From Fibrobacterota bacterium (GTDB taxonomy: Bacteria > Fibrobacterota > Fibrobacteria > UBA11236), in the NCBI GenBank assembly GCA_019509785.1, contig JAEKLQ010000021.1:80082-144081 (forward strand): a stretch of DNA of 64,000 bases, read 5' to 3'. Within the stretch, counting starts at the first letter, position 1. The number at the start of each line of letters is the position of its first letter. Shown piece by piece: positions 41,237 through 62,459 of this stretch. A program made the translations under genes and the position numbers. Under the pieces are notes generated by a model that did not search any database, was not told the origin of the DNA, and saw only the letters and a list, made by a program, of their open reading frames with translations.

Positions 41237-42091
41237 TCACGGACCCGTCGCCCGCTCGTAGCCGAGGCCCGACAACCAAGTGCGGCCGAGGTAGCGATGA
41301 TATCGGATGGCTTGCCGGATGCGGAAACCCTGCCAGGCCAGGCCCATGCCTGCGGCGATCTGGAACGGGCGCGCCGCTACGCCCACGCTGGCTTCCACTC
41401 CCGGATGCGGCCGGATCGAAAGGGAGGCCAAAGCCTTCCAGGCGCCGTCCCCGGACTTGCGGAAATCCAACCGCAGGACTTGGGCCAAAGTCCCCGGATT
41501 CCCGCTCGCATCGGGATCGCGGCTATCCGCCTCCAACCCGATTTGCATGACCCGGCCCGGCAAGGTGGCGGCCGGATGCAGCGGCAGGCCCGCCGCGAAA
41601 GCCCCTACCTTAAGGCGCGGCCAGGGCCGCCAAGCCATGCCGGCCTCTTGCGACGGATCCCATGCGGGCGCCGCCCCCGCCAAGGCGGCGCGCCAAGCGC
41701 TGATGCCGTAGCCGAGATCGAGGGTCCCGGGAAAAGCATCCCGCGACAGGATCCGGACGGACGGCGCCAAGCGGAATCCGTGCTCGGAATAGAGGCCCGT
41801 GATCGATGTAACCCTCCAATCGCATGCCAGCCCGGCGCGTTTGCCGTCCCAGGACGCGCCGACCTCCGCGACGCCCAAGTCGTCCATGCCGTAAGGGCGA
41901 TGGGAATCCAACCTGAGCCCGAATGCGCCCGGGCGCAGGGCCGCCGGATTCTGCCCGAAACCGGACCTTTCCGCAGCTGTCGCCGCGCCCGCACCCAGGG
42001 TGGCGCCATACTCTCCGGCGGTGGGCGAGAGATTGGCGGCTTGGGCCATGGCCGCGAGCCAGAAGCCGGCCGCCACCGGTATCGCTTTCAT
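41237..42091 (-). CDS. Hypothetical secreted/outer-membrane protein
   Basis: Signal peptide MKAIPVAAGFWLAAMAQA. Start overlaps the stop of the upstream LTD gene by 4 nt (42088-42091). Confidence 0.5.
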   Translation of the reverse strand: MKAIPVAAGFWLAAMAQAANLSPTAGEYGATLGAGAATAAERSGFGQNPAALRPGAFGLRLDSHRPYGMDDLGVAEVGASWDGKRAGLACDWRVTSITGLYSEHGFRLAPSVRILSRDAFPGTLDLGYGISAWRAALAGAAPAWDPSQEAGMAWRPWPRLKVGAFAAGLPLHPAATLPGRVMQIGLEADSRDPDASGNPGTLAQVLRLDFRKSGDGAWKALASLSIRPHPGVEASVGVAARPFQIAAGMGLAWQGFRIRQAIRYHRYLGRTWLSGLGYERATGP

Positions 42092-43596
42092 CTTTCCCCC
42101 GCTACGATGGCCCTCTTGCGCGTCCGTCCGTCGCCGAAAGTCAGGCAGAGCACGTAGGCTCCGCGCGGCAACGCGCGGCCGCCGGCGCCGCGGCCGTCCC
42201 ACGCATGCACGCGCCTGCCCGCTCCCCCCCGGCCGATCTCCCTTACGATGTCCCCTTCCAGGCTGAAGGCGCGTAAGACGTAGTCCGCGCCTGCCGGAGC
42301 CAGCACTTCCACCTCCAACGGCGCCTCGGGAAAAGCCGTGCGCCCGGACAAGTTCCAGCCGGCCCCCGCTGGCAGGTCGTTCCCAGCCTCCGGTGCGCCC
42401 GGCTTGATGGGGCCCCAGGACAGGGTATCCACCGCGATTCCCGCCAGGCGGAGGATCAGGGTATCACCGGTGTTACGTAAGGCCCGCCAGGGCTCCGGCC
42501 GCACGACATTAGCCTTAATGGGGCCGAAACGGGCCCGGAAGGCCGCCGTATCCGAAGTAAGGATGATGCGCTCGCCCGGATCCAGGACTCCCGCCTTTGT
42601 CTCCAGCGCCATGGCATCCACCGTGGCCAGGGACAAGGCGATGCGACGGCCCGTCCCTCCCGACACGGAGGTGACGTTCCGGATTTCGACCCACTCCGGA
42701 GCGCCCCCCTGCCCGACCGCTTGGAAGGCCCCGAAGGCTAACGGGCCTCCCCCGGGCTCGCAGGCGACGGCCATGACATTGTCGCCGGGGTTTTCATCCG
42801 GGCTTAAGCTGGCCGACACCCGTCCCCGGGTTCCCGCCGGGATCCTGAATTCCAAGGTGGCGGGATATTCGCCCGCGGAGTCGAGGGAGACGGAATCAAG
42901 CGTCGCCTCGGGAATACCGTCCCAATCGGAGTCGAGGCGCAACGCCACCCATGACCGCGGAGGGGGCCCCGATCCGCGGCTTTCCACGGTAACGCGCACG
43001 CTACTGCCGGCGGCTTCGATCCCCGCGAGGGCGAGATCCCGGCCGGCCGGGGCCGTACTCCGGCTGTTGCGCGAGCCAGGCGTTGCCGAGTCGCCGCCCG
43101 CCTTTCCCGCGAGGGAAGGCAGGAAAGCCGTATAGCCGGCGGCCGCATCCCAAGTGTTTTCCCAACTCGTCCCGGGACGCGAGGCCGGCGCCGTCACGTG
43201 GAAGTTACCCCCGGCCCACGACACGGCCGCATCGAGGGGGCGGCCGTTTACCAGGGTCATGCCGGCCCACCCGCGGGCGCACGCGATCCCGGCCCGCGCA
43301 TAAGCGGTAGAATCCCGGCAAATCAGGAAGCAGTCGGAAGGTCCCAATAAAAGCGGCCCCAGGAGGAAGCTCTGCCCGTCCACGGTAATCGTGACGCCGT
43401 CCAGACGGGTGCTGTCGTTCCCGGGGTGGCCTAGCTCGAGGAATTCACCTTGGGCATCGAGCCAGGCGGCCGGATCGGCGAGGATTTCGGATAGGATGAG
43501 GGCCGGGGTCTCGCTGGCGGCGATCGGGGCAAGTGAAGTAAAAGCGAGCAGCGCGGGCGGGAGCAGAATGCCGTAATGGGACCATCGCGTAAGCAT
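42088..43596 (-). CDS. Secreted protein with two lamin-tail-domain (LTD)-like segments and FlgD-Ig/T9SS-like C-terminal sorting domain
   Basis: LTD-like signatures LILSEILADPA...GEFLEL and EWVEIRNVT. Signal peptide. C-terminal YVLRAFSLEGDIVREI...HAWDGRGAGGRALPRGAYVLCL sorting-domain pattern. Confidence 0.65.
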   Translation of the reverse strand: MLTRWSHYGILLPPALLAFTSLAPIAASETPALILSEILADPAAWLDAQGEFLELGHPGNDSTRLDGVTITVDGQSFLLGPLLLGPSDCFLICRDSTAYARAGIACARGWAGMTLVNGRPLDAAVSWAGGNFHVTAPASRPGTSWENTWDAAAGYTAFLPSLAGKAGGDSATPGSRNSRSTAPAGRDLALAGIEAAGSSVRVTVESRGSGPPPRSWVALRLDSDWDGIPEATLDSVSLDSAGEYPATLEFRIPAGTRGRVSASLSPDENPGDNVMAVACEPGGGPLAFGAFQAVGQGGAPEWVEIRNVTSVSGGTGRRIALSLATVDAMALETKAGVLDPGERIILTSDTAAFRARFGPIKANVVRPEPWRALRNTGDTLILRLAGIAVDTLSWGPIKPGAPEAGNDLPAGAGWNLSGRTAFPEAPLEVEVLAPAGADYVLRAFSLEGDIVREIGRGGAGRRVHAWDGRGAGGRALPRGAYVLCLTFGDGRTRKRAIVAGER

Positions 43597-44795: not shown

Positions 44796-45779
44796 TCATC
44801 CCCGAATGTGATACTTCTTCAGGCTTGGTGCGGATTCGGCGATTAGCCCCATGATCCGGGCATGCGCCTCTTCTCCCCCCTGGGTTTCCCGCACCGGGAC
44901 CAAAGGTAGATAAAGAGGTGAGTTGAAGAAGGTCGCTAATGGGATCGGATTCTTGCGGCAGAACACCGCCTTCACCATCGGATCAAGCGCGGCTTGTATG
45001 GCCGCGGCTTGCTTGCGATCTCCGCCACGGAACGCCCGGATTAGGGACAAGTAGTCCCGGGATACCTCAGGAATGTTACCGCCCGCGGTTATGATTCCGC
45101 TTCCGCCCAGTTCGAGTATCGCGTAGAGCGCATCATCTTCGCCGCTTACTAGGGAAAATTCCTCGGGAGAAACCTTAGAGAGGACCGCTTGCGTGTCCTC
45201 TCGATATTTCCCGGGAACCTTGAAGTCCACGGCCTGCTTTAGACCAATGACATTGGCGTTCCGGGACAAGTGGACGAGGGTGTCCGGCTCGATGTAGCTC
45301 GCTGTACGTCCCGGTACGTTATAGATGATCAGCTTCGCGCCGGTCTCGCGCGCGAGCGTTTCGTAGTGCCGGACCAGGCCTTCTTGCGGGGGGTTATTAT
45401 AGTAGCCCGTGACGCAAAGGCATGCCAAGGCTCCGGCGTCCTTGAGGATCGCTTGGATCATGTCCACCGATTCGCGCGTGCTGTTCGACCCCGCGCCGGC
45501 GATTACGGGAACGCGCCCGTCCACGTAGTCCACCGTGAACTTCACGAATTCGATATGCTGCTGATGGCTCACCGTGGGGCTTTGCCCCGTCGTACCCACC
45601 GGTACCAGTCCGTCCACGCCGGTCGCGATGAGATCATCGATGATGTGCTTCGCTTTGGCATAATCGATCGAGTTGCGGAGGCGGGCCGGATCATCGTCCT
45701 TGAGGGGCGTGAACAGGGCCGGGAAAACGCCCTTGAGTTCCCGACCGGTTGAAATGCTTCTGCGCTTGGTATCAGCCAT
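44796..45779 (-). CDS. dapA: 4-hydroxy-tetrahydrodipicolinate synthase family (DapA-like) lyase
   Basis: DHDPS-family blocks ([28 protein letters not shown], Schiff-base Lys region). Start at ATG 45779 rather than 45845 to avoid a 74-bp overlap with accC. Confidence 0.75.
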
Positions 45780-47136
45780 TTGCCTTCTCGACGAGTAGTT
45801 CCGGATGTTGCTCAAGGAACTTGGTGCTGTATTGACCTTTGACAAACAAGGGGTGCTGCAGGATGCGTTTGTGCAGCGGAATTGTGGTCTTCACGCCGAC
45901 GATGACGAATTCGTCCAAGGCGCGCAGCATGCGGGCGATGGCCCACTCGCGCGTGGGCGCGTGCACGATGAGCTTGGCGATCATGCTGTCGTAATTGGGG
46001 GGCACTTCGTAGCCGCTATAGCAATGGGTATCCACGCGCACGCCCATGCCGCCGGGCAAATGGAAGTCGGTGATGGTGCCGGGAGAGGGCCGGAAGTCAT
46101 GGAAGGCGTCCTCGGCATTGATACGGCACTCGATGCTATGGCCCGCGAGCATGATGCTTTTCTGGGAAAACTCCAGCTTCTCGCCCGCCGCCACCAGGAT
46201 CTGGGCCCGCACCAGGTCGATGCCGGTCACCGCTTCGGTTACCGGATGCTCCACCTGGATGCGGGTATTCATCTCCATGAAATAGAAAGAGGAGTCCTTG
46301 TCGAAAAGGAATTCGATGGTGCCGGCGTTGTAATAGCCCGCGCCCTTGGCCCCGGCCACCGCCACCTTGCCCATCTTTTCGCGCACTTCGGGAGAAACGG
46401 CCGGGCTCGGGCTTTCCTCGATCAGCTTCTGGTGTCGCCGTTGGATGGAGCAATCGCGTTCGCCCAGATAGGTCATATTCCCGTGCTTATCGCCCATCAA
46501 CTGGATCTCGATATGCCGCGGCTCGGTGAAGTAACGTTCGAGGTACACGCTGCCGTTGCCGAAGCAGGCCAGCGCCTCGGCCGAAGCGACCGGGAAAAGC
46601 TTGGTCAGTTCCTCTTCGTTCAGGGCCACGCGCATCCCGCGCCCGCCTCCGCCCGCAGTGGCTTTTACGATCACCGGATAGCCCACCGCCTTCGCGGCCG
46701 ATATGGCTTCCTTCAGGTTATGCACCAGGCCCTCGGAGCCCGGGATGGTGGGCACGCCGGCCGCCTTCATGGTGGCCTTGGCCTGCGACTTGTCGCCCAT
46801 GGACCGGATGGCCGCCGGCGAGGGGCCGATGAAGGTCATGCGGTTCTCTTCGCACATCTCGGCGAACTTGGCGTTCTCGGAAAGGAAGCCGTAGCCCGGA
46901 TGGATGGCGTCGGCATTGGTCAATTCCGCCGCGGCCAGGATCTGCTTCATGTTGAGGTAGCTCTGCTTCGAGTTGGGCGGCCCGATGCAGATGTCCTCGT
47001 CGGCGAAATGCACGTGGAGGGAATGGTTGTCGGCGGTGGAATGCACGGCCACGGTCTTGATGCCGAGTTCCTTGCACGAACGGATGACACGCAGCGCTAT
47101 TTCGCCCCGGTTAGCGATCAGGATTTTCTTAAACAC
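45772..47136 (-). CDS. accC: Acetyl-CoA carboxylase, biotin carboxylase subunit
   Basis: ATP-grasp biotin carboxylase blocks ([42 protein letters not shown]). Confidence 0.9.
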
Positions 47137-48229
47137 CCTGCATCCAGCTCCGGTCGGAGGTGCCCTCGACTCCTTTTACCTTGAGTTCGAAATCGTCGGG
47201 ATTGCTGGCGCTGCGCAAGGCGGTCTCATAGCTGATCAGGTCGTCCTGGTAAAGGCGGAGGATGGACTGGTCGAAGGATTGCGATCCGTATTGGGTGTAC
47301 CCCTCGCGGATGCTGGCGTCAATCATGTGGGTATTCTCGGGTTGGTTCAGAAGTTCACGGACGGTGGCGTTGTTGACCAGGATTTCGCATGCGGGCGCGC
47401 GCCCGCGGCCGTCCTTGCGCGCCAACAGGCGCAAGGTGATTACCGAAACCAAGGTACTGGAAAGCATCAGGCGCACCTGCTGATGCTGGTGCGGCGGGAA
47501 GAAGGAGATGATGCGGTTCACCGTCTCCACGGCGTTCATGGTATGCAAGGTCGAAAGAACCAGATGGCCGGTGTCCGCCGCCGACAAGGCGATGGACATG
47601 GTCTCCTGATCGCGGATTTCCCCGACCAGGATCACGTCCGGATCCTGCCGGAAGGCCGAGCGCAAGGCGGTGGCGAACCCGTTGGTGTCCGAAGAGACCT
47701 CGCGCTGGGAGATGATGCTCTTCTTGTCCTTGTACAGGAATTCGATCGGATCCTCGATGGTGACGATGTTCGAGGAGGTGACCTCGTTGATATGGTCGAT
47801 CATCGAGGCTAGGGTGGTGGATTTGCCCGAGCCGGTGGTGCCGGTGACGAGGATGAGCCCACGCTTGCGCAAGGAAAGATCCCGGATGACTTCGGGAAGG
47901 CCCAACTGCTCGAAAGCAGGGACCACGCCCACGATGGCGCGGATGGCCAGGGCGGCCGTGCCGCGCTGCTTGAAGGCGTTCACGCGGAAGCGGCCGATGT
48001 TGCGGATGCCGATGGCGAAATCGATCTCGTGTTGTTCGTCGAAGCGCGTCTTCTGGTTGCGGTCCATCAAGTCGAGGATGAACTGCTCCATCTGCTCCGG
48101 AGTCGTGCGGTCGCCCTGCAAGCGGTACAACTCGCCATTGATGCGGAAGGCAGGCTGCCCGCCCACGCGCAGATGCAAATCCGACGCGTTGCGTGCCACC
48201 ATCTCCTTCAGCAAGGCTTCGACGTTCAT
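47129..48229 (-). CDS. pilT: Type IV pilus retraction ATPase, PilT/PilU family
   Basis: Walker [10 protein letters not shown], Asp box, Walker [11 protein letters not shown], His box [10 protein letters not shown]. Stop overlaps the accC start by 8 nt. Start 2 nt after the accB stop. Confidence 0.85.
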
Positions 48230-48231
48230 TC

Positions 48232-48741
48232 TTAGCCGGGCCTGATCCGGAACAGAACCGTCCCGTATTCGACCGGCATCTCGTTCTGGACGCAGACTTC
48301 CTCGATGACGCCCGTGACGTCCGATTCGATCTCGTTCATGATTTTCATGGCCTCGATGATGCAGAGGACCTGGCCGGACTTGACCGCGGTGCCGACGGTG
48401 ACCAGCGGCGCGCCGCCCGGCGTATTGCTGGCGTAGAAGGTCCCGACCATGGGGGAATTGACGTCCTTGAACTTGCTCGCGTTCGCCGACGGCCCGGATG
48501 CCTGCGCGGCGCCGGAGGCGGCAACCGCGACGGGAGCCGCTTGAACCGAAGCGGGCGCCGCCGGAGCGGAAATCGCCATCGGCATGGACATCATCGGCGG
48601 TAAGGAGGCTGCGTGGGCGACTTCCTTCTTCAGCACGATCTTAGAGGTTTCGTCGCTGAAGCTGATCTCGGTGAGGCTGCTCTTATCCAGCAGCTTTACC
48701 AGGGAAGCTACGTCGCTCAGTTGCATGTTTTTCCTTTCCAA
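48232..48741 (-). CDS. accB: Acetyl-CoA carboxylase biotin carboxyl carrier protein
   Basis: Biotinyl-lysine motif CIIEAMKIMNEIE, Pro/Ala-rich linker. Confidence 0.85.
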   Translation of the reverse strand: MERKNMQLSDVASLVKLLDKSSLTEISFSDETSKIVLKKEVAHAASLPPMMSMPMAISAPAAPASVQAAPVAVAASGAAQASGPSANASKFKDVNSPMVGTFYASNTPGGAPLVTVGTAVKSGQVLCIIEAMKIMNEIESDVTGVIEEVCVQNEMPVEYGTVLFRIRPG

Positions 48742-48793: not shown

Positions 48794-51349
48794 CTATTTC
48801 TTCCGCTTGGGTACCTTCAGCCCCGGCCTGGGCCAACGGGGATCCGATTCCGGCCCGCGATCGCCCTCCGCCTTGGAGGCTTCGATTTCGGCGATCCGCT
48901 TCCGGACCGATTCGTTCTCGGGTTCCCGCTCTTGGAGCTGGCGGTATATCTGCAACGCCTGCTCCTTTAGTCCTTGCTGGAAATATATTTCCGCCAGGGT
49001 GACCGTGGCAACATTGGCGCCCGCGGCCTGCTCCGGCATTTCCTCTTCCGCGGGATATCCGTCCTCCTCGTCCATCATCGGCGAAAGCTCGGGGGCGGCG
49101 GCGACGGGGCCCGCGCCAGCCGCATCCGAAGGCGTCCCGTCCCAGCGCGCATCGGCGACGGCAAGGTCGCTTTCCGCCGTCGCGGCGCCTTTTCCGGTCA
49201 TGGAAGGGGAAGAGGGAAATAGGGAAGACTCATCTTCCCCTTCGGCCGCGGGACCCGATTCATCCAGCTTGACAATCGGCATTTCCATCGTCACGTCGGG
49301 TTCGGGGAACGGATCCGGCATCCCGGCGAGATCGGTTTCGAAAAGGGGTTCTTCCTGGGCGGGAACGGCGCCGGCATCGGCGAACAACTTGTCGAGCCTT
49401 TCCGCTACGTCTCCGCCGTCCACCATTTCGATGGAAGCGGATTCGGAAAGGGAGGGGAGTTCCTCGGGGGCCAAGGTATCGAAGGCGGTTGCGCCCTCGC
49501 TGCGGGTCGCGGCTTGAAAGGAAGCGGGGAACACGTCTTCGCTGGGCAAAATGAGGGTATCGCGCGCATCGGCGGCGACCGTATCATTCATGTTACCCTG
49601 GAAAGGGGGCTCCCGATCCGCCTGGGCGGTGGCGGGCTCCGCGGACGCCCGCGGCGGATCGGGCTCCAGGTTGAAGAGCCTGTCGAGCTGGGCTTCCACG
49701 TCGGCCCCCGTCACCTGCGGGGCATCGACTTGCCAGCCGGCAGGCGGCATGGTCTCGGTGGAGAGGATGGTTTCGTCCCCGAAGGACGGCGCGAGCCCGG
49801 CTTGCGGCGCAGGTTCGACCTGCGTTGCGGGTTCGGCCCGGGGCGCGGGCTCGTCTTCCGTCGGGACATCGGAAAAAGGCGGGAGCAAGTCCGCGAAGGG
49901 GCCGACAGCGGCGGGGGCGGCGGTCGTAGCCGTTGCTGACGAAACCGGAGCCAAGGAAGCCTCGTCGCTCGCCTTCGCCTTCGGGTCGGGGCCGAGCATC
50001 GAATCCAACTTGTCGGCCACGTCTTGGCCGGTCACCATTTCGCCGGAGGCTATTTCGGATGGGGCAGCCGCCGCGCGATCGCCGAAAGCGACCGCATCGC
50101 CCATGATGACCGTCTCGCCCAGGTTAGGTCCTTGGGCCACCGGCAGATCCGAAGCCGAAAGCGCGGCCGGCTTGGGAGTCTCTTCCTCTCCGGTCAGATT
50201 GAAAAGCTCATCCAGGCGCCGTTCGATGTCCTCGCCTTGCACGCGTTCATCCCCGTCTTCCAGATCTTCTCCCGAAGGCGCCGTCCGGGGCAGGTCGGTG
50301 ACGGAGTTCTCGAAGGATTCGCTTGCGGGCGTCGCAGCATCGGATGCGCCGGGAAGATCGCCCAGATCGAAGGGCTCCGCCTCGATGGGGAAATCGGACG
50401 GGGTCTCCAGCGACCGCATTTCCCCGGTCGCGGTGGCCGAAGCTTCCGGCGGCATGTCGGACCGGGGCGCGGCGGCGGTCCAGGTCGCGGTGGCGGACGG
50501 CAGCCCGCCCTCTTCCGATCCGAAAATGCTGTCGAGACGGTCTTCGACGTCGCTGCCCGAAATCGGGGCGGGCGCGTTCTCGCCCAAGGTCTCCGGGCCG
50601 GTCGAGGTAGAAAGCATGTCCATGGGCCTGGGGTCGGCGGCGGAATCGGAAGCGGGCGAGAAGTCGCCGGCCGGGAATTGGGTCGTGCCCGAGGCCGAGG
50701 GGAAGGAATCTTCCAGGGACGCGAGGTTGGGGACATCGCTGCCCGACGGGAGGAAATCGTCGGCCATGTCGTTGAGATTCACCTCCATCACGTCGCCTTG
50801 CAGGCCGTCGGGCTTCGCGAAGGTATCCTCATCGCGCCCGCTCGGGGTCGGCGGCGCGTAGCGGCTGGTTTCGGAAGGCGCCGATGCGGCCGGGGCGGTC
50901 CCCGTCGATCCCGACCCTTCCAGCAGCGCGCGGATCTCCGCGTCCCAGGGTTCGACTTCGAGGATGGAGCGGTAATAGCCGGCGGCCGCGTCGCCCCATT
51001 GGAGCCTGTCCATGATGAGAGCCAGGGAGCGCATGGCGGAGAGGCAGCGGGGATCCAGGCGGAGCGCCGCTTCGAACTGTTCGCGCGCTTCTTCCAGGCG
51101 CCCGGCGTCCAAATGCGTTTTGCCTAAGACCACGTATCCCGCGACGTGAGGGCGGGCGCGCAGGCCTTCCAAGCAAAGGCTAACGGCTTCATCCAAGCGG
51201 CCTTCGGCGCGCAACGCATCCGCGACGCGGGCGAAACCTGGGGACGCGGCCGATCCCGGGAACTTGCGCTGCAGCTGATCGGCAGTGTAACGAATGCTCA
51301 TGAATCCCCCTAAACCAACGGATTCCAGGACCCGGGAAAGGGCCCTCAA
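48794..51349 (-). CDS. Highly acidic TPR-flanked scaffold protein with five reiterated G-x-D-[VI]-[EA]-x-[RKQ]-L-D-x-[LMI]-F motifs and FimV-like C-terminal TPR motif
   Basis: N-terminal TPRs. ~600-aa D/E/P/S/A-rich low-complexity region with motifs SGSDVEDRLDSIFG, QGEDIERRLDELFNL, TGQDVADKLDSMLG, TGADVEAQLDRLFNL, DGGDVAERLDKLFAD. C-terminus TLAEIYFQQGLKEQALQIYRQLQ. Confidence 0.7.
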   Translation of the reverse strand: MRALSRVLESVGLGGFMSIRYTADQLQRKFPGSAASPGFARVADALRAEGRLDEAVSLCLEGLRARPHVAGYVVLGKTHLDAGRLEEAREQFEAALRLDPRCLSAMRSLALIMDRLQWGDAAAGYYRSILEVEPWDAEIRALLEGSGSTGTAPAASAPSETSRYAPPTPSGRDEDTFAKPDGLQGDVMEVNLNDMADDFLPSGSDVPNLASLEDSFPSASGTTQFPAGDFSPASDSAADPRPMDMLSTSTGPETLGENAPAPISGSDVEDRLDSIFGSEEGGLPSATATWTAAAPRSDMPPEASATATGEMRSLETPSDFPIEAEPFDLGDLPGASDAATPASESFENSVTDLPRTAPSGEDLEDGDERVQGEDIERRLDELFNLTGEEETPKPAALSASDLPVAQGPNLGETVIMGDAVAFGDRAAAAPSEIASGEMVTGQDVADKLDSMLGPDPKAKASDEASLAPVSSATATTAAPAAVGPFADLLPPFSDVPTEDEPAPRAEPATQVEPAPQAGLAPSFGDETILSTETMPPAGWQVDAPQVTGADVEAQLDRLFNLEPDPPRASAEPATAQADREPPFQGNMNDTVAADARDTLILPSEDVFPASFQAATRSEGATAFDTLAPEELPSLSESASIEMVDGGDVAERLDKLFADAGAVPAQEEPLFETDLAGMPDPFPEPDVTMEMPIVKLDESGPAAEGEDESSLFPSSPSMTGKGAATAESDLAVADARWDGTPSDAAGAGPVAAAPELSPMMDEEDGYPAEEEMPEQAAGANVATVTLAEIYFQQGLKEQALQIYRQLQEREPENESVRKRIAEIEASKAEGDRGPESDPRWPRPGLKVPKRKK

Positions 51350-51356
51350 ACCCTCA

Positions 51357-51611
51357 TTATATCAAACCATCCAGGGGAATTGCCTCATCTATCAGCATGA
51401 TGGGGATGTCTTCCCGGACGGGATACAGGATTTTCCGATCCGCCCGCAGCAGGCCCGAATCCAGCTTCTCCCGGACCGCTTCGCCGCCCCGGTTCTTGAG
51501 CCGGCCCGCCTCGATTTCGAGGTTGAGGGACGCGATTACGGACGAATCCGCGAGGGAAACGTCCTGCTTGGTTTCCGGGCAACACAGCATATCCAACAAT
51601 TCCTTGTCCAT
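51357..51611 (-). CDS. Trm112/YcaR-family small zinc-ribbon-like protein (UPF0434)
   Basis: MDKELLDMLCCPETKQ...ILYPVREDIPIMLIDEA matches the Trm112p-like pattern. Confidence 0.7.
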   Translation of the reverse strand: MDKELLDMLCCPETKQDVSLADSSVIASLNLEIEAGRLKNRGGEAVREKLDSGLLRADRKILYPVREDIPIMLIDEAIPLDGLI

Positions 51612-52604: not shown

Positions 52605-54275
52605 TCATTTCCGAAAATTCAAATCGATCAGGCTCATCTGGCCGGGCTCCGGTTCGCCGACCAGAAGCTTCACTTCCAGATCCTTGGTCCCCTGCTCCGA
52701 GAGCAGTTTCACCGCGGTTTGGAAGGCGCCTTCGTCCACGGCGATCACCACGCCTTGCAAATCGACCTTGCGCACGATGGAGGGCAAGGTGCCGAGATCG
52801 CCGATCATGTTCTGCATGATCTCCTGCGGTACCCGGCCGGCGCCCCACTTGATGAAGCCCACGAATTCGTATCCGGCCAGGCGTTCCTGCTGGATGAGAT
52901 CGGCCAGGCGGCGGGCCCGGGCGTTGTTGCCCAAGATGGCGATGCGCTTGGTGGAACCCATAACCTTGGTGAAGAATCGCCCGCCTTGGATGGAAAGGAA
53001 GCGCCAGGCCGTGAGGCAGGCGATGCTCCCGATGGCGGCGAAGGCGAAGGCCACGCGCGAGAAGGCTTCCTCGCGGATGAAGAAGCTCAAGGCGAAGAAG
53101 CTGAGGAAGGAAACGCACAAGGTGGCGAAGATGGTCTTCAGCTTGGGCACCAGGCGGCCGTAATCCCCGATGTAGGCCATGGGCACCAGCACGGAGATCG
53201 AGACCAGGCAATGCCAGAAGAAATACAGGGGCCGATTGGTATGGTAAGGGGAAAGCATTCCCAACCAACCCATATAGAGGAAGGTGACCGCGTCCAGGAT
53301 CCCGTTCACAAGGCCCAGATCGAGGATCCAACGCTGCCAACGCTGGAAGCGCGAGTACGCGAAATTGGCCACCGCCAGGATGGTCACGCCCAGGTAGAAG
53401 AAGATGAGCGGCAGGGCGCGCAATTCGAAATGCTTCTTCGAGAAGATGACCATGGACTCGTAGAAATAGAGGAAGGAACGGAAGGGCTTGCTCTTGGCGC
53501 TCTCGCCCTTGAAGTGGATGGCCGTGGTCTGGGGATGGTAGAAATTGCGCTTCCCCAGGGTCTTGATGCGGAAGCAGAGATCGAGATCCTCCCCGTACAT
53601 GAAGAAGTCCTCGTCGAAGCCGCCGATCGAGCGGAAAAGATCGGTGCCGACGCACATGAAGGATCCCGAAACGGCGTCCACCTCGTGAGTCTTGTTCTCG
53701 TCCAGGAAGGTGAGATTGTATTTGCCGAAGACGCGGCTCTTGGGGAAAAGGGTGGATAGCCCCATGAACTTGTAGGCGGCGACTTGCGGCGAAGGGAAGC
53801 TGCGTTTGCAGGCCAACTGGAGGCTGCCGTCGCGGTTGACGATCTTGCAGCCGGCCACGCCCACCTGCTCTTGGGCGCGCATGAAGTCCCACATCACCTG
53901 GAAGGTATCCTCGCTCACGAGGGTATCCGGATTGAGGAACAGGAGCAGATCCTGGGAGGCCACGGCGGCGCCGCGGTTGCATCCGGTGCCGAAGCCCAGG
54001 TTCCGATCGGACTTGAGCCACAGGACTTCGGGAAAGCGCGGCTTGAGCAGGGTCAGCGTGCCATCGCGCGAGTCGTTGTCGAAAACGACGACTTCGATAT
54101 CCCCGGCGAACTTCGCCGCCGCGTGGTAGATGCTCTGGATGCAGGCATCCAGGTATTCCCGCACGTTGTACGAGACGATGACGATGGAGATGCCCGGTCC
54201 CTTCGCGCCTTCCGGCGAAAGCTCGGATTGCGGCGCCCGTTCCGGAACCGCGCCCAGCCGCGCCGGCGGCTTGAC
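52605..54275 (-). CDS. Family-2 glycosyltransferase fused to a C-terminal multi-TM + Rossmann-like segment resembling the N-terminal half of WbaP-type sugar transferases (start uncertain, GTG ~54275)
   Basis: GT2 block ISIVIVSYNVREYL...VVVFDNDSRDGT...DED-containing region, then ~6 TM helices, then KRIAILGNNARARRLADLIQQ...YEFVGFI (CoA-binding-like) with no Bac_transf catalytic domain. Confidence 0.65.
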   Translation of the reverse strand, partial: VKPPARLGAVPERAPQSELSPEGAKGPGISIVIVSYNVREYLDACIQSIYHAAAKFAGDIEVVVFDNDSRDGTLTLLKPRFPEVLWLKSDRNLGFGTGCNRGAAVASQDLLLFLNPDTLVSEDTFQVMWDFMRAQEQVGVAGCKIVNRDGSLQLACKRSFPSPQVAAYKFMGLSTLFPKSRVFGKYNLTFLDENKTHEVDAVSGSFMCVGTDLFRSIGGFDEDFFMYGEDLDLCFRIKTLGKRNFYHPQTTAIHFKGESAKSKPFRSFLYFYESMVIFSKKHFELRALPLIFFYLGVTILAVANFAYSRFQRWQRWILDLGLVNGILDAVTFLYMGWLGMLSPYHTNRPLYFFWHCLVSISVLVPMAYIGDYGRLVPKLKTIFATLCVSFLSFFALSFFIREEAFSRVAFAFAAIGSIACLTAWRFLSIQGGRFFTKVMGSTKRIAILGNNARARRLADLIQQERLAGYEFVGFIKWGAGRVPQEIMQNMIGDLGTLPSIVRKVDLQGVVIAVDEGAFQTAVKLLSEQGTKDLEVKLLVGEPEPGQMSLIDLNFRK

Positions 54276-54307
54276 CCGGTGGCCCGGCAGGTTCCGCAAG
54301 AACGTGC

Positions 54308-55018
54308 TCAAGCCGAACCCCCGAAGAAGCGGAGGCGGATGAGCAGGAAGAGGGCTTCCTTGATGATGCCACCCGACATCTTGGAGGCGCCGTGGGTCCG
54401 GTCCCTGAAAATGATCGGGATTTCCTTGATGCGGTAGCCTTTCTTCCAGAGCTTGTACTTCAGCTCGATCTGGAAGGAATACCCGGTGGACCGGATCTTC
54501 GCGAGGTCCAGGGTCTTGAGCGCCGAGACGCGGTAGCACTTGAAGCCGGCGGTGGCATCCTGGATGGGCATGCCCGTGGCCCAGCGCGCGTAGACGTTGG
54601 CGAAGTAGCTCAAAAGCAGCCGGCTCATGGGCCAGTTGACCACGTTCACGCCGTTGATATAACGGCTGCCGATCACCAGATCGTTGTCCTGGATCGCAAC
54701 CAGGAACGTCGCCAGGTATTCGGGGTCATGGGAAAAGTCGGCATCCATCTCGAATACGAAATCGTACCCCTCATCGATGGCGTATCGGAACCCGCGCACG
54801 TAGGCGCTGCCCAGGCCCTGCTTGCCTTCCCGCTGGATCAGATGGAGGTTTTTGCGTCGGGGCAGTTGCTCGTTCACCCACTTGCCGGTCCCGTCCGGGG
54901 AACCGTCATCCACCACCAGGACATCCAGGTCCAGACCGGTCGCGTCGATGCGATCCAGCATCCGGGGCAGGTTCTCCATCTCATTATACGTGGGGATGAT
55001 AACTAAGGTTTTAGCCAT
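54308..55018 (-). CDS. Family-2 glycosyltransferase, dolichyl/polyprenyl-phosphate mannose synthase (Dpm1/Ppm1-like), soluble type
   Basis: LVIIPTYNEMENL...VVDDGSPDGT...DADFSHDP typical of Dpm1-like GT2 enzymes. Confidence 0.8.
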   Translation of the reverse strand: MAKTLVIIPTYNEMENLPRMLDRIDATGLDLDVLVVDDGSPDGTGKWVNEQLPRRKNLHLIQREGKQGLGSAYVRGFRYAIDEGYDFVFEMDADFSHDPEYLATFLVAIQDNDLVIGSRYINGVNVVNWPMSRLLLSYFANVYARWATGMPIQDATAGFKCYRVSALKTLDLAKIRSTGYSFQIELKYKLWKKGYRIKEIPIIFRDRTHGASKMSGGIIKEALFLLIRLRFFGGSA

Positions 55019-55124
55019 GATGCCGAAACAGGCTTTAGACCAAGCCCCATCGGTGGAGCGAATATAACAAAAGGCCCCCTGCGGACCGTGCCGTGCCGCG
55101 GAAATCAGGGGAATTCAGGGAAAT

Positions 55125-56000
55125 TCAGCCGGCATCGACGCGGGCGAGCTGCCCGGACACGTCCCGGGGCGTAAAGTCGGTGTCGCGGATCAATTTGTCG
55201 ATGCGCAATCCCGATCGCAAGGGACGGCGGGCGGCTTGCTTCAAGTCGGCCGTGAGGCAGGGCTGGATGAGGGAGGCATCGAGGCCGTAATGGGCGGCGA
55301 TGGCCCTGGCCCAATCGAAACGACTGTTCCACTCGGACCCGGCCACATGATAGATTCCGCCGCGCCCGCCTGCCACCAGCTTCCAGATCGCCGAAGCCAA
55401 ATCTTCCGCCAAGGTGGGGTTCCCGAACTGGTCGGTGACGATGCGGATGGTTTTCCCCGCCGCCAGGCTATTGCGCACGAAGTCGACGAAGCTCGTTTTC
55501 ATTCCGCGGCCTTTTCCCCATAAGGTCATGGTGCGGACCACCAGCGAGAGGGGAGCGCCGGCCAGGGCCAGGGCTTCGGACTCCAGCTTGGTGGAGCCGT
55601 AGACGCTCAAGGGCCGGGTAGGCGCGTCTTCGGCATACGGCCCGGCTTCGCCGTCGAAAACGTAATCGGTGGAGACGTGGACGAGGGGCTTGCCGAAGGC
55701 GGCCATCCAGCCCACGGTATCCCGGTTGATGAGTCCAGCCAGGGCGGGTTCGCGCTCGCACAGATCCACGTCGGTGACGGCGGCGGCATTGAAGATCCGG
55801 TCCGGGTCGACGGCGCGCACCACGGCTTCGAGTTCGTCCCGCTTTCCGATATCGGCCGAACGGTAGCTCGCGAGGGATTCGGGGAGGATGGGCTCTGGCT
55901 CTTTGCCGACCCCGTGGATTTCCCATCCGCCCGCGGGACGCGCCCGCAGAAGGTTCTGGCCCAAAAGGCCGTTGCATCCCACTAGCAGGATTTTCGCCAC
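55125..56000 (-). CDS. dTDP-4-dehydrorhamnose reductase-like NAD(P)-dependent sugar reductase (RmlD family)
   Basis: N-terminal Rossmann ILLVGCNGLLGQNL, STDYVFDG and YGSTK catalytic region characteristic of RmlD/SDR-extended enzymes. Confidence 0.7.
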   Translation of the reverse strand: MAKILLVGCNGLLGQNLLRARPAGGWEIHGVGKEPEPILPESLASYRSADIGKRDELEAVVRAVDPDRIFNAAAVTDVDLCEREPALAGLINRDTVGWMAAFGKPLVHVSTDYVFDGEAGPYAEDAPTRPLSVYGSTKLESEALALAGAPLSLVVRTMTLWGKGRGMKTSFVDFVRNSLAAGKTIRIVTDQFGNPTLAEDLASAIWKLVAGGRGGIYHVAGSEWNSRFDWARAIAAHYGLDASLIQPCLTADLKQAARRPLRSGLRIDKLIRDTDFTPRDVSGQLARVDAG

Positions 56001-56003
56001 GCC

Positions 56004-56945
56004 TTAGGCTTCCCCGATGGCGCGGGCGACCGGGCGATCGCGGTTGGCCATGCGATGATTGATCATCTCGCCCAAAAGCCCGATGGACACGAACTGGATG
56101 CCTACGATCATGAAGGCGACGCCGGCCAGCATCAGGGGCCGTACGTGCCCGTTGCCGGTGACCGCCCATTGGATGGCGAAGCCGGCGAGGATGAGGAAGC
56201 CGACGAAACTGCAGAGGAGGCCCACGAAACCGAACAAGTGCAGGGGCCGGGTGGTATAGCGATGCAGGAACACCAGGGTGATGAGATCGAACATCCCGTT
56301 GTTGAGGCGCGCCCATCCGTACTTGGAGACCCCGAACTTGCGCGCGCGGTGCTCCACGACCTTCTCGGCGACCTTGAACCCGTCCCAATGGGCCAGCACC
56401 GGGATATAGCGATGCAATTCGCCGTACAGGTCGAGGCTCTTCACCACCTCGCTCCGGTAGGCCTTGAGGCCGCAGTTGAAATCGTGAAGCTTCACGCCGG
56501 AAACCCGCGAGGTGATCCCGTTGAAGACTTTCGAAGGCAGGGTTTTGCCGAGAGGATCGTGGCGCTTCTTCTTCCAGCCGGAAACCAGATCGGCGCCGTC
56601 TTCCAACATCTTGATTAGCGCCGGGATCTCATTGGGGTTGTCCTGCAGATCGGCATCCATGGTAATGACGTATTTGCCCCGGGCTCGGGCGAAGCCTTCG
56701 GAAAGGGCGGCGGCTTTGCCGCTGTTGCGCCGGAATTGCACACCGCGGATGCGTCCGTCCTGGTCGGATAGCCTTTGGACGCATGCGAAGGTGCCGTCCT
56801 TGCTGCCGTCATCGATCACGATGGCCTCGTAATCGATCTTTTCCCGCTCGCACACCTCGCGGATTTCCCGCGCCAGCTCGGGCAGGCTCTCGACCTCGTT
56901 ATAGGCGGGGATGACGATGGAAAGGGTGGGGCTCATGACCTTCAT
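56004..56945 (-). CDS. Family-2 glycosyltransferase, polyprenol-phosphate hexosyltransferase type (GtrB/ArnC-like) with two C-terminal TM helices
   Basis: LSIVIPAYNEVESL...VIDDGSKDGT...DADLQDNP, C-terminal TM helices. Confidence 0.8.
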   Translation of the reverse strand: MKVMSPTLSIVIPAYNEVESLPELAREIREVCEREKIDYEAIVIDDGSKDGTFACVQRLSDQDGRIRGVQFRRNSGKAAALSEGFARARGKYVITMDADLQDNPNEIPALIKMLEDGADLVSGWKKKRHDPLGKTLPSKVFNGITSRVSGVKLHDFNCGLKAYRSEVVKSLDLYGELHRYIPVLAHWDGFKVAEKVVEHRARKFGVSKYGWARLNNGMFDLITLVFLHRYTTRPLHLFGFVGLLCSFVGFLILAGFAIQWAVTGNGHVRPLMLAGVAFMIVGIQFVSIGLLGEMINHRMANRDRPVARAIGEA

Positions 56946-58102
56946 TCTCCGCCTCGCGGCGAGGCATCGGCCGCGGGCAATGCGCCCCCGGCCGCTTCAT
57001 CAGCGGCCGCATCCGCAGCCGCTTCGGCCGCGGTCGCGATCCCGGCGGAACGGCCCCGCACAAAGTAGAATCCGCCCCCCAGCATGACAACCAGGCCGAC
57101 CACGGAAGGAAGGAACGCCAATGCCGCAGCGGTGGCGTTGCCATCCGCCGCCGCCAACACGCCCGGCAGGGTGTACAGATAGGTGCCGATGCTTTGCGGA
57201 ATGCCCCAGCCCCCCACGTTGAGCGGAATAACGCCCGCCAGCGCGATCACGGGGATGAAGCAGAAAAAGAAAACCGGCGAGATGCGCGCGTCCAACGCGA
57301 TCCCGGAGAACCAATGGACGTCGATGCGCAGCACCTGCACCAAACACGAGACGGCGATGATCCACATCATTTCCCGCCAGCGGGCCTGGTAGGCTTGCAA
57401 GATGCCCTGCATGCGGCCATGGGCCTCGGCCAGCCAGCGCATGCCCGCCCAATGGATGAGCGCGTTCACCAGGGCCGCGATGCGGCGGGACAGCAAAAGG
57501 ATCAGGACCGCGACGAAGATCCCGAACACCAGCCCGACCGCGTAGAGCAGATGGCGGAAGACGCCTTGGTCCAAGGTATGCCGCCAGAGCGCGAAGGCCA
57601 CCGCCACCAGGGACAACAGCGAAAGCGAGAAAAACCCGATCAGCCGATCGAGGAAGGTGGCCGCCACGGCCTTGCCCCAGCCGTCCGACCCCTGCTTCGC
57701 TTCGTATACCCGCAGGGCATCGCCGCCCACCGTCCCCGGCAGGAAGTTGTTCAGGAACATGCCCGAGTAGTAGGCCCGGAAACATGCGCGATACCCCATG
57801 GGAATCCCCTGCAAACGCAAGAGCAGGAACCATTGGTAGGCGCCCGCCGCCACCGAGATGAAGAAGAGGACCGCGCTTAGAAGTACCCAGCTCGGCCGCG
57901 CGCCGGCAAGGGTTTGCAAGATACGGCCCTGTCCGTTCTTGTTGATCACCCACCACAGGATGGCGAGGGCGGCGATGAGGCGCAGCCAAATCCAGGCCCG
58001 CTTCCGGCGCCGTCGCCGGTCGCCCGACTTTCCCAGGTCGCCCGACCGTCTGCGGTCTCCCGACCTTCCCAGGTCGCCCGACCGTCTGCGGTCGCCGCTC
58101 AC
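56942..58102 (-). CDS. Flippase-like integral membrane protein (UPF0104 / lysyl-phosphatidylglycerol-synthase TM-region family) with repeat-containing basic N-terminus
   Basis: 8 predicted TM helices, conserved Gly/Pro pattern of UPF0104. N-terminal RRSGDLGRSGDRRRSGDLGKSGDRRRRRKR. ATGA overlap with the downstream GT2. Confidence 0.65.
   Translation of the reverse strand: MSGDRRRSGDLGRSGDRRRSGDLGKSGDRRRRRKRAWIWLRLIAALAILWWVINKNGQGRILQTLAGARPSWVLLSAVLFFISVAAGAYQWFLLLRLQGIPMGYRACFRAYYSGMFLNNFLPGTVGGDALRVYEAKQGSDGWGKAVAATFLDRLIGFFSLSLLSLVAVAFALWRHTLDQGVFRHLLYAVGLVFGIFVAVLILLLSRRIAALVNALIHWAGMRWLAEAHGRMQGILQAYQARWREMMWIIAVSCLVQVLRIDVHWFSGIALDARISPVFFFCFIPVIALAGVIPLNVGGWGIPQSIGTYLYTLPGVLAAADGNATAAALAFLPSVVGLVVMLGGGFYFVRGRSAGIATAAEAAADAAADEAAGGALPAADASPRGGE
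58039..58101. repeat. Perfect 27-bp direct repeat (tcccaggtcgcccgaccgtctgcggtc x2, 36-bp period), in frame, encoding the duplicated RRSGDLG[RK]SGDR peptide
   Basis: Read directly from the sequence at 58039-58065 and 58075-58101. Confidence 0.6.
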
Positions 58103-59331
58103 GCCCGTCCTCCCTGGGAAGCGGCCGGTCCCGCCAGGGTATCATCCGTGTTACGTCCCCCCGGGTTGGCGGCCCCGCCTGGGGATCTCTCCCAAGCGCG
58201 CAGCAAGGCGTCGCGGGTGACCTCGAAGGTCTTTTCCCAGGTATGCCGGGAGGCCCAGTCCAAGCCGCGCAAGCGCATGGCGGCGGCGGCCTCCGGATCC
58301 GACAGGATGCCGCGGACCGCGGCCGCGAAGGCCTGCGCATCCCCGAAAGGGACCAAGTAACCGGTCTCGCCATGGCGCACGCTGTCGCACAGGCCCGGCA
58401 CGTCGGTGGCCACCACGGGAGTCCCGCAGGCATTGGCTTCGATGGAAGTGAGCCCCCAGCCTTCCTTGAGAGAGGAGTTGACCACCACGCGGGCCTCGCC
58501 GTAAAGCTCCACCTTGCGCTCTTCGCTGATGAAGCCCAGGAATTCCGTGCAAGCCTCCAACCCCAATGCCTTGGCCTTTTCCTTCAAACGGGGAACGTCG
58601 TCGCCGGAGCCGGCGATCTTGAGGACGAGATCGGGGAAGCCGGGTTTGAGGGCCGCGGCGCCTTCCAGGATCATGTCCAGGCCCTTATACCGCTTGATGC
58701 GGCCCACATAGAGGATGACGTTGCCGCGTTTGGCGGGATCGGCGGGCGGGCGGTACATGGATAAATCGGCGCCCTCGGGGGCGATGTCCACCTTGCCGAA
58801 GCCTTTGCGGATCAACTCGACCCGGCTGCTCTCCGATCCGGTCAGCACTTGCACCCGGCGATAGGCCGCCGGCATGAGGGCCTCGAAGGCAAGCACGTAG
58901 CAGGCCATGGGCCAGGCGGTTTCGTGGAACAGGACGCGCCCGAACAAATGATGGATTTGCGCCACCACCGGCTTGCCGCAGAACCAGGGCAGGAAGAAAG
59001 GGATCTTGTTGGAATCGTCCAGCACCACGTCGATGGCGTGCCGCCGGCACCAGCCGCGCGCGCGCAGGCCCACCGTGTAGTTGAAGAGGAACTTGCCGCC
59101 GATGCGATGGACCTCGACCCCGTCGATGATCTCGCGGGCGGGAGCCCCGGCGAAGGCGTGGGAATATTGCACGCAGGCGAAGCCCGCCGCTACCAGGCGC
59201 ACGGCCACCTCGTGGAGATGGACCTCGGCGCCCCCCGCCTCGGGATTCTTGATATCCCGCCAGTTGACCAAAAGGACCCGGGGGCGGCGCCCCGCGGGGC
59301 CCGCTACGCCGGACCCGCTCTTCGCCGCCAT
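58099..59331 (-). CDS. Family-4 glycosyltransferase (GT-B, retaining type)
   Basis: GT4 C-terminal signature region (EGWGLTSIEANACGTPVVATDVPGLCDSVRHGETGYLV). Confidence 0.8.
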   Translation of the reverse strand: MAAKSGSGVAGPAGRRPRVLLVNWRDIKNPEAGGAEVHLHEVAVRLVAAGFACVQYSHAFAGAPAREIIDGVEVHRIGGKFLFNYTVGLRARGWCRRHAIDVVLDDSNKIPFFLPWFCGKPVVAQIHHLFGRVLFHETAWPMACYVLAFEALMPAAYRRVQVLTGSESSRVELIRKGFGKVDIAPEGADLSMYRPPADPAKRGNVILYVGRIKRYKGLDMILEGAAALKPGFPDLVLKIAGSGDDVPRLKEKAKALGLEACTEFLGFISEERKVELYGEARVVVNSSLKEGWGLTSIEANACGTPVVATDVPGLCDSVRHGETGYLVPFGDAQAFAAAVRGILSDPEAAAAMRLRGLDWASRHTWEKTFEVTRDALLRAWERSPGGAANPGGRNTDDTLAGPAASQGGRA

Positions 59332-59345
59332 GGGTTCCGATTCTC

Positions 59346-62300: not shown

Positions 62301-62459
62301 CCCCGGCGGATGGGGATTGCCCAGGATGTTGGATGCGCCCACCAACTCGCCGCAATCCCAGAAAGAGACGGTGGGGGCCATGGTGGCCAGGTAGACCGCG
62401 AAAGCCACGGCGAACATGGCGAGCGCCAGGATCAGTTTCAGTTGCTTCTCTGCCAGCAT
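59346..62459 (-). CDS. Large polytopic membrane protein of the DUF2723/TMEM260-like GT-C superfamily with C-terminal TPR repeats and K/A/P-rich tail
   Basis: N-terminal SFWDCGELV...GNPHPPGNPLF hallmark of DUF2723. >15 TM helices over ~650 aa. C-terminal TPR-like repeats, then a lysine/alanine/proline tail. Confidence 0.8.
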   Translation of the reverse strand: MLAEKQLKLILALAMFAVAFAVYLATMAPTVSFWDCGELVGASNILGNPHPPGNPLFTLLARVFILVAPFREAATRVNVISALTSALTVMMCYLFTVKLLDIACARKLDRFATHCAALIGAVLVMFSDTFWFSAVEAEVYGTSMLLVLLISWLSLDWYERRGTPKADRILALIAYLAFLGMGVHPFSFITMPAVLLFVVISEDRHRKNWLGFVLVFATFGIASMILVSGAKVDMFWAYVSVLVVGAIVAVGMPDLEFDLPTALAGLGLMAVIYDIGDFIFYALSLVAVGLVAWLMAKNLEGKRRWKFAVILGLVSLLGFSSYAYVPIRSSVEPKIDENEPRTWPVFKEYLERKQYGSESMITRAFHRRGVLLHQLLVYPHMGYGGYMLSQYFPWKVGETRADENEPVVRIHPVKHDFNTLFMNIGSNGQVQMLLFLLFQAPFLYGGYLLYKRNKHLGTYALLLYAIGSYALIFYMNFADGSQMEMRDYDYWKSQNFNPQAKPENVHIEVRDRDYFFTPGFIFMGILFGVASGFLMNKLKEKSGGRNGMPRGVGLALLAVSAAVPSWANWHEHDRTGDYIPWDYAYNLLQSCRPNSVLFTNGDNDTFPLWFIQEVEHIRNDVRVVNLSLVNTDWYIKQLKTHDPKLNIGFSDDEIKQMEPQPWRFKKTVEFKVPNSAIVSELEPRPYLKVQDIMVLHIVQNNYPAHPIHFAVTVGDENMMGLEKYVVMEGMVYTLTEEKKNKDIDAPLTAHLVDSVYRFRGLGDPKLNVDLNTEGLLTNYSATDFRLVMWAQEKLVEIQKQLEGLKKSAGAAPSDSLKAAIAAKEKERDDKIAFAERYLQLNAKILPREWRNNYYGAQLYQAVKDYAKAEAYYRKGIHDAPNPRLFGANLAQLYIEQSKFDQAESLLNDLKGQAPNDFELWYGLSDLYQKRGNLGKAHDVLAEWLRANPSHQYAAMVSQQIQFLETQMRNPAPPPGAASADSAKAHAADKTAAKPGEGGIPGLAPVQNGKPKGTAPAPAGKQKDTAMKGTTSPSGKKS

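Follow-up and report, generated by a model that had tools for sequence, protein, structure and literature searches.

FimV and HubP are hub proteins that capture clients and that combine a periplasmic LysM-like domain with a very acidic, mostly unstructured cytoplasmic region, and FimV is tied to type IV pili (PMC12918733). How the acidic disordered regions of HubP and FimV recognize their clients is still unclear (PMC12918733). SgmX of Myxococcus xanthus is a cytoplasmic tetratricopeptide repeat (TPR) protein that is reported to regulate leading-pole type IV pili by protein–protein contacts (PMC7519303, PMC9811614). Here we analyze a 64,000-nucleotide stretch of DNA from a Fibrobacterota bacterium (the window: contig JAEKLQ010000021.1 of assembly GCA_019509785.1, positions 80,082 to 144,081) and focus on one minus-strand gene, which encodes an acidic TPR protein with five copies of a short motif, called the scaffold below. 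PopZ-type hubs and eukaryotic endocytic adaptors achieve multivalent, low-affinity docking with short motifs in a disordered acidic or proline-rich region; the scaffold would use the same principle, and has no sequence relationship to them. It represents a real, uncharacterised family of probable multivalent scaffolds of the phylum Fibrobacterota, for which there is no specific Pfam or NCBIfam model and on which no literature was found. The best overall explanation, which we favour by a little over even confidence, is a cytoplasmic, extremely acidic, multivalent scaffold or hub, with a pilus-linked pathway as the likeliest setting.

Like FimV and HubP, the scaffold has a large acidic unstructured region, short helices or repeats and a TPR module. 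Unlike them, it has no signal peptide, LysM or transmembrane (TM) segment and no detectable FimV domain, its main TPR domain is N-terminal and its likely anchor is a polybasic tail. The repeated unit is a sharply defined, apparently capped helix of 14–16 residues, whereas that of FimV/HubP is an acidic repeat of 46 residues. The hosts differ as well: Pseudomonas, Vibrio and Shewanella for FimV/HubP, and Fibrobacterota, with relatives in Gemmatimonadota, for the scaffold. The polar-organiser-like hub that was originally proposed is reasonable as an analogy of function: the scaffold would do the work of a FimV/HubP protein without belonging to that family. By description only, the scaffold is also like SgmX in being a cytoplasmic TPR protein. 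SgmX consists almost wholly of TPRs and serves the extension side of the pilus machine, whereas the scaffold is for the most part a disordered chain bearing repeated linear motifs and is encoded near a retraction-type ATPase.

The gene and the five motif copies that define the protein are located as follows.

48794..51301, minus strand: probable coding sequence of the scaffold, 835 residues from the ATG at 51301, with the stop codon at 48794-48796
50516..50563, minus strand: motif 1, ISGSDVEDRLDSIFGS, AlphaFold2 helix 251-261
50195..50242, minus strand: motif 2, VQGEDIERRLDELFNL, AlphaFold2 helix 356-367
49988..50035, minus strand: motif 3, VTGQDVADKLDSMLGP, AlphaFold2 helix 425-435
49667..49714, minus strand: motif 4, VTGADVEAQLDRLFNL, AlphaFold2 helix 532-543, predicted local distance difference test (pLDDT) score about 76
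49376..49423, minus strand: motif 5, VDGGDVAERLDKLFAD, AlphaFold2 helix 629-641, pLDDT about 79

The five copies follow the pattern [VI]-[STD]-G-x-D-[VI]-[EA]-x-[RQK]-L-D-x-[LIM]-F and lie at residues 265, 372, 441, 548 and 645 (numbering of the 851-residue open reading frame, see below). Their occurrence is not random, because 20,000 shuffles of the protein yield no match to the strict pattern, and the loose pattern occurs 0.0005 times per shuffle compared with the five copies observed. This bears out the original prediction of five reiterated copies in the middle of the protein. The spacing of 60–100 residues that it gave is roughly right, the measured values of 107, 69, 107 and 97 being slightly wider. 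Its motif, which began at the [SG] and ended at the F, is in truth longer: position -1 is always V or I, and the F is frequently followed by G or N. The consensus from 211 instances is [VI]-[T/S/D]-G-x-D-[VI]-[E/A]-x-[R/Q/K]-L-D-x-[L/I/M]-F-[G/N/A]. A beta-clamp-binding motif (QL[SD]LF) was considered and set aside; compared with it, the scaffold motif contains one residue more (LDxLF), and its five copies lie inside an acidic region.

Conservation among orthologs carries the argument further. A search of 5.8 billion proteins returns about 46 relatives, all from metagenome-assembled genomes (MAGs) of Fibrobacterota, which are 750–1060 residues long and 38–80% identical to the window protein. 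All five motifs are conserved, each at its own orthologous position (about 45 orthologs), and the linkers between them diverge in both sequence and length. The ortholog consensus is SGxDVEDRLDSLFG for copy 1, QGEDIERRLDELFNL for copy 2, TGQDVADKLDxLFG for copy 3, TGADVEAQLDKLFNL for copy 4 and DGxDVAERLDELFAD for copy 5. Thus, of the conservation on which the original prediction had hinged, the motifs themselves are kept, every one of them, but the spacing is not, as the gaps between neighbouring copies range from 39 to 199 residues. The motif region is no low-complexity artefact, because the copies keep their order and their identity from ortholog to ortholog. The DNA encoding the five copies is only 46–62% identical and there are no tandem DNA repeats in the gene; the five are therefore ancient copies that selection at the protein level has maintained.

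The structure predicted by AlphaFold2 for the full-length protein, run with an alignment of 42 sequences, has pLDDT below 50 in 528 of the 835 residues. The only helices within the disordered region are five short ones, which coincide exactly with the motifs (pLDDT 59–79). By textbook helix-capping rules, the motif can be read as a hydrophobic staple with a capping box. Here, V/I at N' would pair with V/I at N4 to form the staple, the S/T/D at the N-cap and the D at N3 would form the capping box, and the G/N after the F would serve as C-cap. V4, L8, L11 and F12 would then form a single hydrophobic face with acidic flanks. This reading, drawn from the residue pattern, explains why these particular positions are invariant.

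Two further elements of the disordered region bear on the motif count.

49259..49300, minus strand: degraded ancestral sixth motif, PDVTMEMPIVKLDE, placed by alignment columns
50741..50794, minus strand: conserved island GDVMEVNLNDMADDFLP, residues 186-203, highly conserved, with a short predicted helix at 176-179 (numbering of the 835-residue protein)

A sixth copy, V[ST]GE[DE]V[SA]SRLxE[IM]FE, is present in most orthologs and has decayed to PDVTMEMPIVKLDE in the clade of the window. GEDESSLF was ruled out as its relic, since the alignment puts the degraded position at PDVTMEMPIVKLDE. The island GDVMEVNLNDMADDFLP may be a degenerate extra copy of the motif. Further conserved islands are SLEDSF, ATATW, STETMPPAGW and DTLAPEEL (near residues 211-216, 285-312, 531-541 and 624-631), and all of these islands, GDVMEVNLNDMADDFLP included, may be docking sites for other partners.

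The length of the protein depends on its start codon. The maximal open reading frame (ORF; 48794..51349, minus strand) begins with a TTG at 51349 and encodes 851 residues, the length first assigned to the protein. An ORF of that length does exist, but 835 residues from the ATG at 51301 is likelier, since the ortholog N-termini, all of which open MSI.YT..., begin there, as does the NCBI model P0001 ('MAG: Fibrobacteres bacterium'), an identical protein of 835 residues. The whole protein has an isoelectric point (pI) of 4.05 and a net charge of about -99, and its middle region is enriched in A, P, D, S and E. Composition, pI and pLDDT together confirm the acidic, probably disordered middle that had been proposed. 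The protein is divided into four parts.

50909..51301, minus strand: N-terminal TPR domain, residues 17-147 (851-residue numbering), about 3.5 repeats, from Pfam and AlphaFold2
49034..50908, minus strand: acidic intrinsically disordered region, residues 148-772, from composition, charge, pLDDT and conservation profile
48872..49015, minus strand: C-terminal TPR-like helical hairpin, NVATVTLAEIYFQQGLKEQALQIYRQLQEREPEN..., pLDDT about 90
48797..48865, minus strand: conserved polybasic tail, ...DPRWPRPGLKVPKRKK, with near-invariant columns and a charge of about +5

The N-terminal domain comprises eight helices with pLDDT 81–97, mostly above 90, and six Pfam models (TPR_14, TPR_2, TPR_8, TPR_19, TPR_16 and TPR_1) exceed their cutoffs at residues 42-130. 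With models above the gathering threshold and a helical-repeat fold, the scaffold belongs to the TPR clan. Family-specific invariant residues of the domain include FAR.AD, D.RC and EPWD. Foldseek and PDB matches to it are to generic TPRs only, and a Foldseek search of PDB with the full model likewise returns generic TPR matches only, over about 113–133 columns. The disordered region, a linker of about 620 residues, is responsible for most of the charge (about -94 for residues 151-761 of the 851-residue ORF). The C-terminal hairpin is the most conserved stretch of the family; it has weak TPR_6/TPR_7 matches and one weaker Pfam TPR repeat at residues 780-823, so that TPRs are present at both ends, as originally described. 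The polybasic tail may tether the protein to an anionic surface or a membrane. No signal-peptide-like segment is seen at the ortholog N-termini. In agreement with the original prediction, Pfam finds no LysM in the scaffold at E<=1, and there is no TM segment: the peak 19-residue Kyte-Doolittle mean is 0.99 and lies within an Ala/Ser/Thr-rich stretch.

The family extends beyond close orthologs. A word-index search with the 40-residue motif alignment gave no match at E<=10. An exhaustive HMMER search of 1.84 billion cluster representatives with the motif profile detected 101 proteins at E<=1e-3, of which 22 reach E<=1e-30. Where named, their taxa are Fibrobacteria or Chitinivibrionia, the named distant proteins being from Chitinispirillales or Chitinivibrionales, the other class of the phylum. 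Many of the 101 are not close orthologs, and have up to 10–16 matched stretches that are often near-identical, recent tandem expansions. The 71 complete proteins have 3–10 copies each, most commonly 5–6. All complete family members share the N-terminal TPR domain (signature ...SRAFSRLADxYRxxGD..AI..C..GL..HP...), a related hairpin (LADIYFQQG...) and the polybasic tail, which reads RPLAGVRIKKK in the Chitinivibrionia counterpart versus RPGLKVPKRKK in the window protein. Among 6,307 six-frame ORFs from the window and related loci (690 kb), only scaffold ORFs carry the motif.

Several relatives depart from this architecture. P0100 (L038:1825-4542) is a protein of 905 residues with seven near-perfect repeats of about 96 residues, each with KVSNEDLASQLDELFG. 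A TPR domain is absent and the C-terminus is a hydrophobic, TM-like segment, an arrangement that would fit display of the motif from a surface tether. About 5.5 kb from its gene lies that of a small protein with a weak MshEN-domain match. Two short orthologs (L028:10001-10720 and L030:3577-4206; 239 and 209 residues) consist only of the N-terminal TPR domain, a short linker and the hairpin; the disordered region, motifs and basic tail are all lost and their loci lack pilT. Being closely related (their AccC proteins are 84% identical), the two represent one loss event. In the Fibrobacterales orthologs from termite gut (L031:3-1598 and L032:101-1096), the canonical motif is replaced by repeats of FFNVxGDESLGGIDESLLETIDSVEVDEDL, and these loci also lack pilT. 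Distant relatives, some annotated Gemmatimonadaceae, keep the N-terminal TPR domain and hairpin; those annotated Gemmatimonadaceae carry different short motifs whose core is similar (GGSIDALFG, ELSLDSVFR, FSFDQFF). In the Gemmatimonadota-type relatives P0047, P0056, P0058 and P0059 (loci L041 and L042), a terminal amphipathic helix, DDIEQFNSWLQGLK ([DE][DE][IL]xxFxxWLQ[GS]LK), replaces the polybasic tail of the Fibrobacterota proteins. We take this helix to resemble the membrane-targeting helix of FtsA.

The gene neighbourhood, viewed over 10 kb around each related locus, is the principal pointer to a pathway. On the minus strand of the window, the order is accA, a Trm112-like gene, the scaffold gene, accB, pilT, accC and a dapA-like gene.

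51357..51611, minus strand: Trm112-like gene directly upstream of the scaffold gene, PF03966 27.5 bits versus a cutoff of 22
48232..48741, minus strand: accB (biotin carboxyl carrier protein), flanked by the scaffold gene and pilT, Pfam Biotin_lipoyl
47129..48229, minus strand: PilT/PilU-family ATPase gene, two genes downstream of the scaffold gene, TIGR01420 456 bits and Pfam T2SSE

The pilT gene, first described as adjacent to the scaffold gene, is nearby, but accB lies in between. Within the region 45772-48741 (minus strand), pilT follows the end of accB by 2 nucleotides and overlaps the start of accC by 8. The window ATPase and the neighbour in L034 (439 bits) both pass the TIGR01420 cutoff of 319. 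This gene order is kept in 28 loci (the window and 27 related species, from a scan of species-representative genomes), down to about 67% AccC identity, and pilT lies between accB and accC in every one of the 21 distinct Fibrobacteria-type loci that have four or more canonical motifs. The same insertion of pilT between accB and accC is seen in Fibrobacterota loci and in the Gemmatimonadaceae locus L041. A literature search for such an insertion, or for a described TPR/PilT partner in Fibrobacter, found nothing relevant.

An alternative layout, coaD-scaffold-pepP-pilT, occurs in four Chitinivibrionia-type loci and in a MAG deposited as 'Fibrobacter sp.', and pilT is next in four of the five coaD-scaffold-pepP loci. 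Here, coaD holds the position of the Trm112-like gene (Chitinivibrionia and MAG L040), which encodes 84 residues and lies between accA and the scaffold gene in Fibrobacteria-type loci only. The two Gemmatimonadota-type loci read scaffold-aroQ-pepP-accB-pilT, with accC next in L041; the L042 sequence breaks off within pilT. The order looks ancestral and would link the two Fibrobacterota layouts. Among the other window ORFs scanned (about 35), there are no pilus, chemotaxis or receiver genes, and a promoter/terminator scan of the operon gave counts equal to the shuffled expectation. All Fibrobacteres genomes examined have type IV pilus genes and 2–3 pilT paralogs (PMC4704652).

Taken at its simplest, each motif would be a self-stabilised, pre-formed amphipathic helix, as its residue pattern suggests, and the helices would act as multivalent docking sites on an acidic disordered chain strung between conserved end modules. 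The client would be a single conserved one, bound in several copies, or an oligomer, bound through its subunits. Anchorage would come from the TPR modules and from the basic tail, the latter probably on an anionic surface such as a membrane. That the protein is a multivalent docking scaffold is probable. That its client comes from the type IV pilus or PilT system is a tentative assignment, and somewhat doubtful. Type IV pilus dynamics is nevertheless the likeliest pathway, because, across two phyla, a PilT/PilU-family gene neighbours the scaffold gene, two genes downstream in almost every locus that carries the motif. A more specific version, which is attractive and rather unlikely, has the capped helices docking a component of the type IV pilus, most attractively the subunits of hexameric PilT, with the scaffold as a tail-anchored landing pad or sponge that would set where and when pili retract. 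The ancestral copy number of the motif in the family would be five to six.

Several observations weigh against a pilus client. When the window PilT was fused to a natural 85-residue scaffold segment with motif 4 and modelled by AlphaFold2, using 61 PilT homologs as the alignment, most of the PilT chain was at pLDDT 75–90 and motif 4 was helical at pLDDT 29–36, with no confident docking. This negative is weak: PilT, which functions as a hexamer, was modelled as a monomer, the peptide lacked alignment depth and there was no contact map. The link between scaffold and pilT is real at the level of gene neighbourhood and is not supported at the level of predicted binding. Nor is the association strict: L037 keeps four motifs without pilT, and L026, L027 and L029 keep pilT with a divergent scaffold motif (e.g. 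EDDVxxAIDEL). The joint loss of motifs and pilT in the two short orthologs counts as a single event only. The association is also confounded, because the cluster holds housekeeping genes (aroQ, pepP, accB, accC and accA), and shared descent without physical interaction could account for the gene order. Finally, charge and conservation are the only pointers to membrane binding by the tail.

Self-association and the subunits of acetyl-CoA carboxylase are live alternatives for the client. The first, which is unlikely, holds that the TPR domain or hairpin binds the motif helices of other molecules to form a network or condensate, as a PopZ-like organiser would. TPR grooves commonly bind short peptides, one receptor module combined with five or six ligands in each chain is an arrangement typical of condensates, and the motif helices were predicted with pLDDT 59–79 in the context of the full-length chain. 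The relatives with reduced architectures argue otherwise: the short orthologs retain a well-conserved TPR domain and hairpin without any motif, so that both modules have another function, and P0100 has seven motifs and no TPR domain to receive them.

An acetyl-CoA carboxylase client has poor prospects. Here, the motifs would dock AccB, AccC or AccA and thereby assemble an unstable multi-subunit enzyme on one tether. The gene does lie inside accA-trm112-scaffold-accB-pilT-accC in all 28 loci, the Gemmatimonadota relative also precedes accB...accC, and both the short orthologs and those of L031 and L032 adjoin accB even where pilT is missing. An aroQ/pepP/accBC neighbourhood is, however, a widespread housekeeping arrangement with little functional information. 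What speaks against the enzyme is that the coaD-scaffold-pepP-pilT loci have no acc genes within 8–10 kb on each side, yet carry 4–16 motif copies, and that the short orthologs lost all motifs while the acc genes remain.

Membership of the FimV/HubP family itself, with a C-terminal FimV domain organising the pole as in a true polar landmark, is very improbable. What suggested it is that the scaffold, like the cytoplasmic part of HubP/FimV (PMC12918733), combines short helices in a largely unstructured acidic region with a TPR-like element at the C-terminus, and two orthologs are labelled 'pilus assembly protein FimV' by the Joint Genome Institute (JGI). The original prediction had likewise seen a FimV-like C-terminus and proposed a check with TIGR03504 (the C-terminal FimV domain) and TIGR03505 (the FimV N-terminal region). 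Neither NCBIfam model matches the scaffold at E<=1. The C-terminal 85 residues match only designed or generic TPR and pentatricopeptide repeat (PPR) chains in PDB, with no FimV or HubP chain among the matches at E<=10, so the likeness does not stand. The topology is also reversed, with the main TPR domain N-terminal and the basic tail C-terminal. An extensive acidic region is the sole defining feature of FimV/HubP that the scaffold has, and membership is refuted by the missing LysM, TM segment and FimV domain.

Equally remote is the idea that the motifs are receiver-binding peptides of the CheY type, akin to the EIDALL of FliM or the C-terminal helix of CheZ, through which the scaffold would recruit or sequester a response regulator. 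EIDALL of FliM/FliY is a known docking site for CheY-P (PMC9126983), and by eye some family instances (e.g. SGDDVADQLDELFG from Chitinivibrionia relatives) resemble the CheZ end ...SQDQVDDLLDSLGF (sequence verified, PDB 1KMI chain Z), each being a short, acidic, amphipathic helix with a hydrophobic-D-x-L-hydrophobic core. The scaffold motif differs in its invariant G and its staple and capping-box part, which are absent from CheZ and FliM. This candidate was rejected since both score at background with the motif hidden Markov model (0.2 bits for the CheZ peptide and about -1 for the FliM N-terminus, where random 27-mers reach 5.3 bits at the 99.9th percentile), a search of PDB with the motif profile gave no match at E<=10, and the window ORFs scanned include no receiver or che genes.

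Other genes of the window are recorded here for completeness. Downstream of the scaffold operon lie a PAS-PAS-GAF-SpoIIE (PP2C phosphatase) protein (36719-38986, minus strand), an HD_5-domain protein (39977-41170, minus strand), with an HD_5 gene also at the downstream edge of orthologous loci, and a 502-residue protein with weak lamin-tail-domain and FlgD-Ig matches (42088-43596, minus strand), which has a counterpart at the same position in orthologous loci. Upstream, a glycosyltransferase/envelope cluster (52605-62459, minus strand) is syntenic in relatives. Its scanned members are a GT2/CoA_binding_3 protein (52605-54539) and a TMEM260-like O-mannosyltransferase of 1037 residues with C-terminal TPRs (59346-62459); an RmlD-like epimerase, LPG_synthase_TM and GT4 are presumed from gene calls in orthologous loci. 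A 731-residue protein with a caspase (Peptidase_C14) domain is encoded at 3528-5723 on the plus strand.

The bacterial hubs FimV, HubP and PopZ are known mainly from Proteobacteria. The scaffold family is an unusually clean case of such a protein: one apparently self-capped helical motif, present in 3–10 copies in complete proteins and in up to 16 matched stretches in one relative, is conserved across a whole phylum and evolves by copy-number change. If the landing-pad proposal is true, the scaffold would be a counterpart of FimV/HubP without LysM or TM segment, invented independently in the Fibrobacterota-Gemmatimonadota lineage and equipped with a defined peptide code. Attachment of Fibrobacterota to cellulose and chitin relies in part on type IV pili (PMC4704652). 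Should the client be the pilus machinery, the scaffold would provide a handle on the control of adhesion in this phylum, and whichever the client, the motif is a ready-made bait for finding it.

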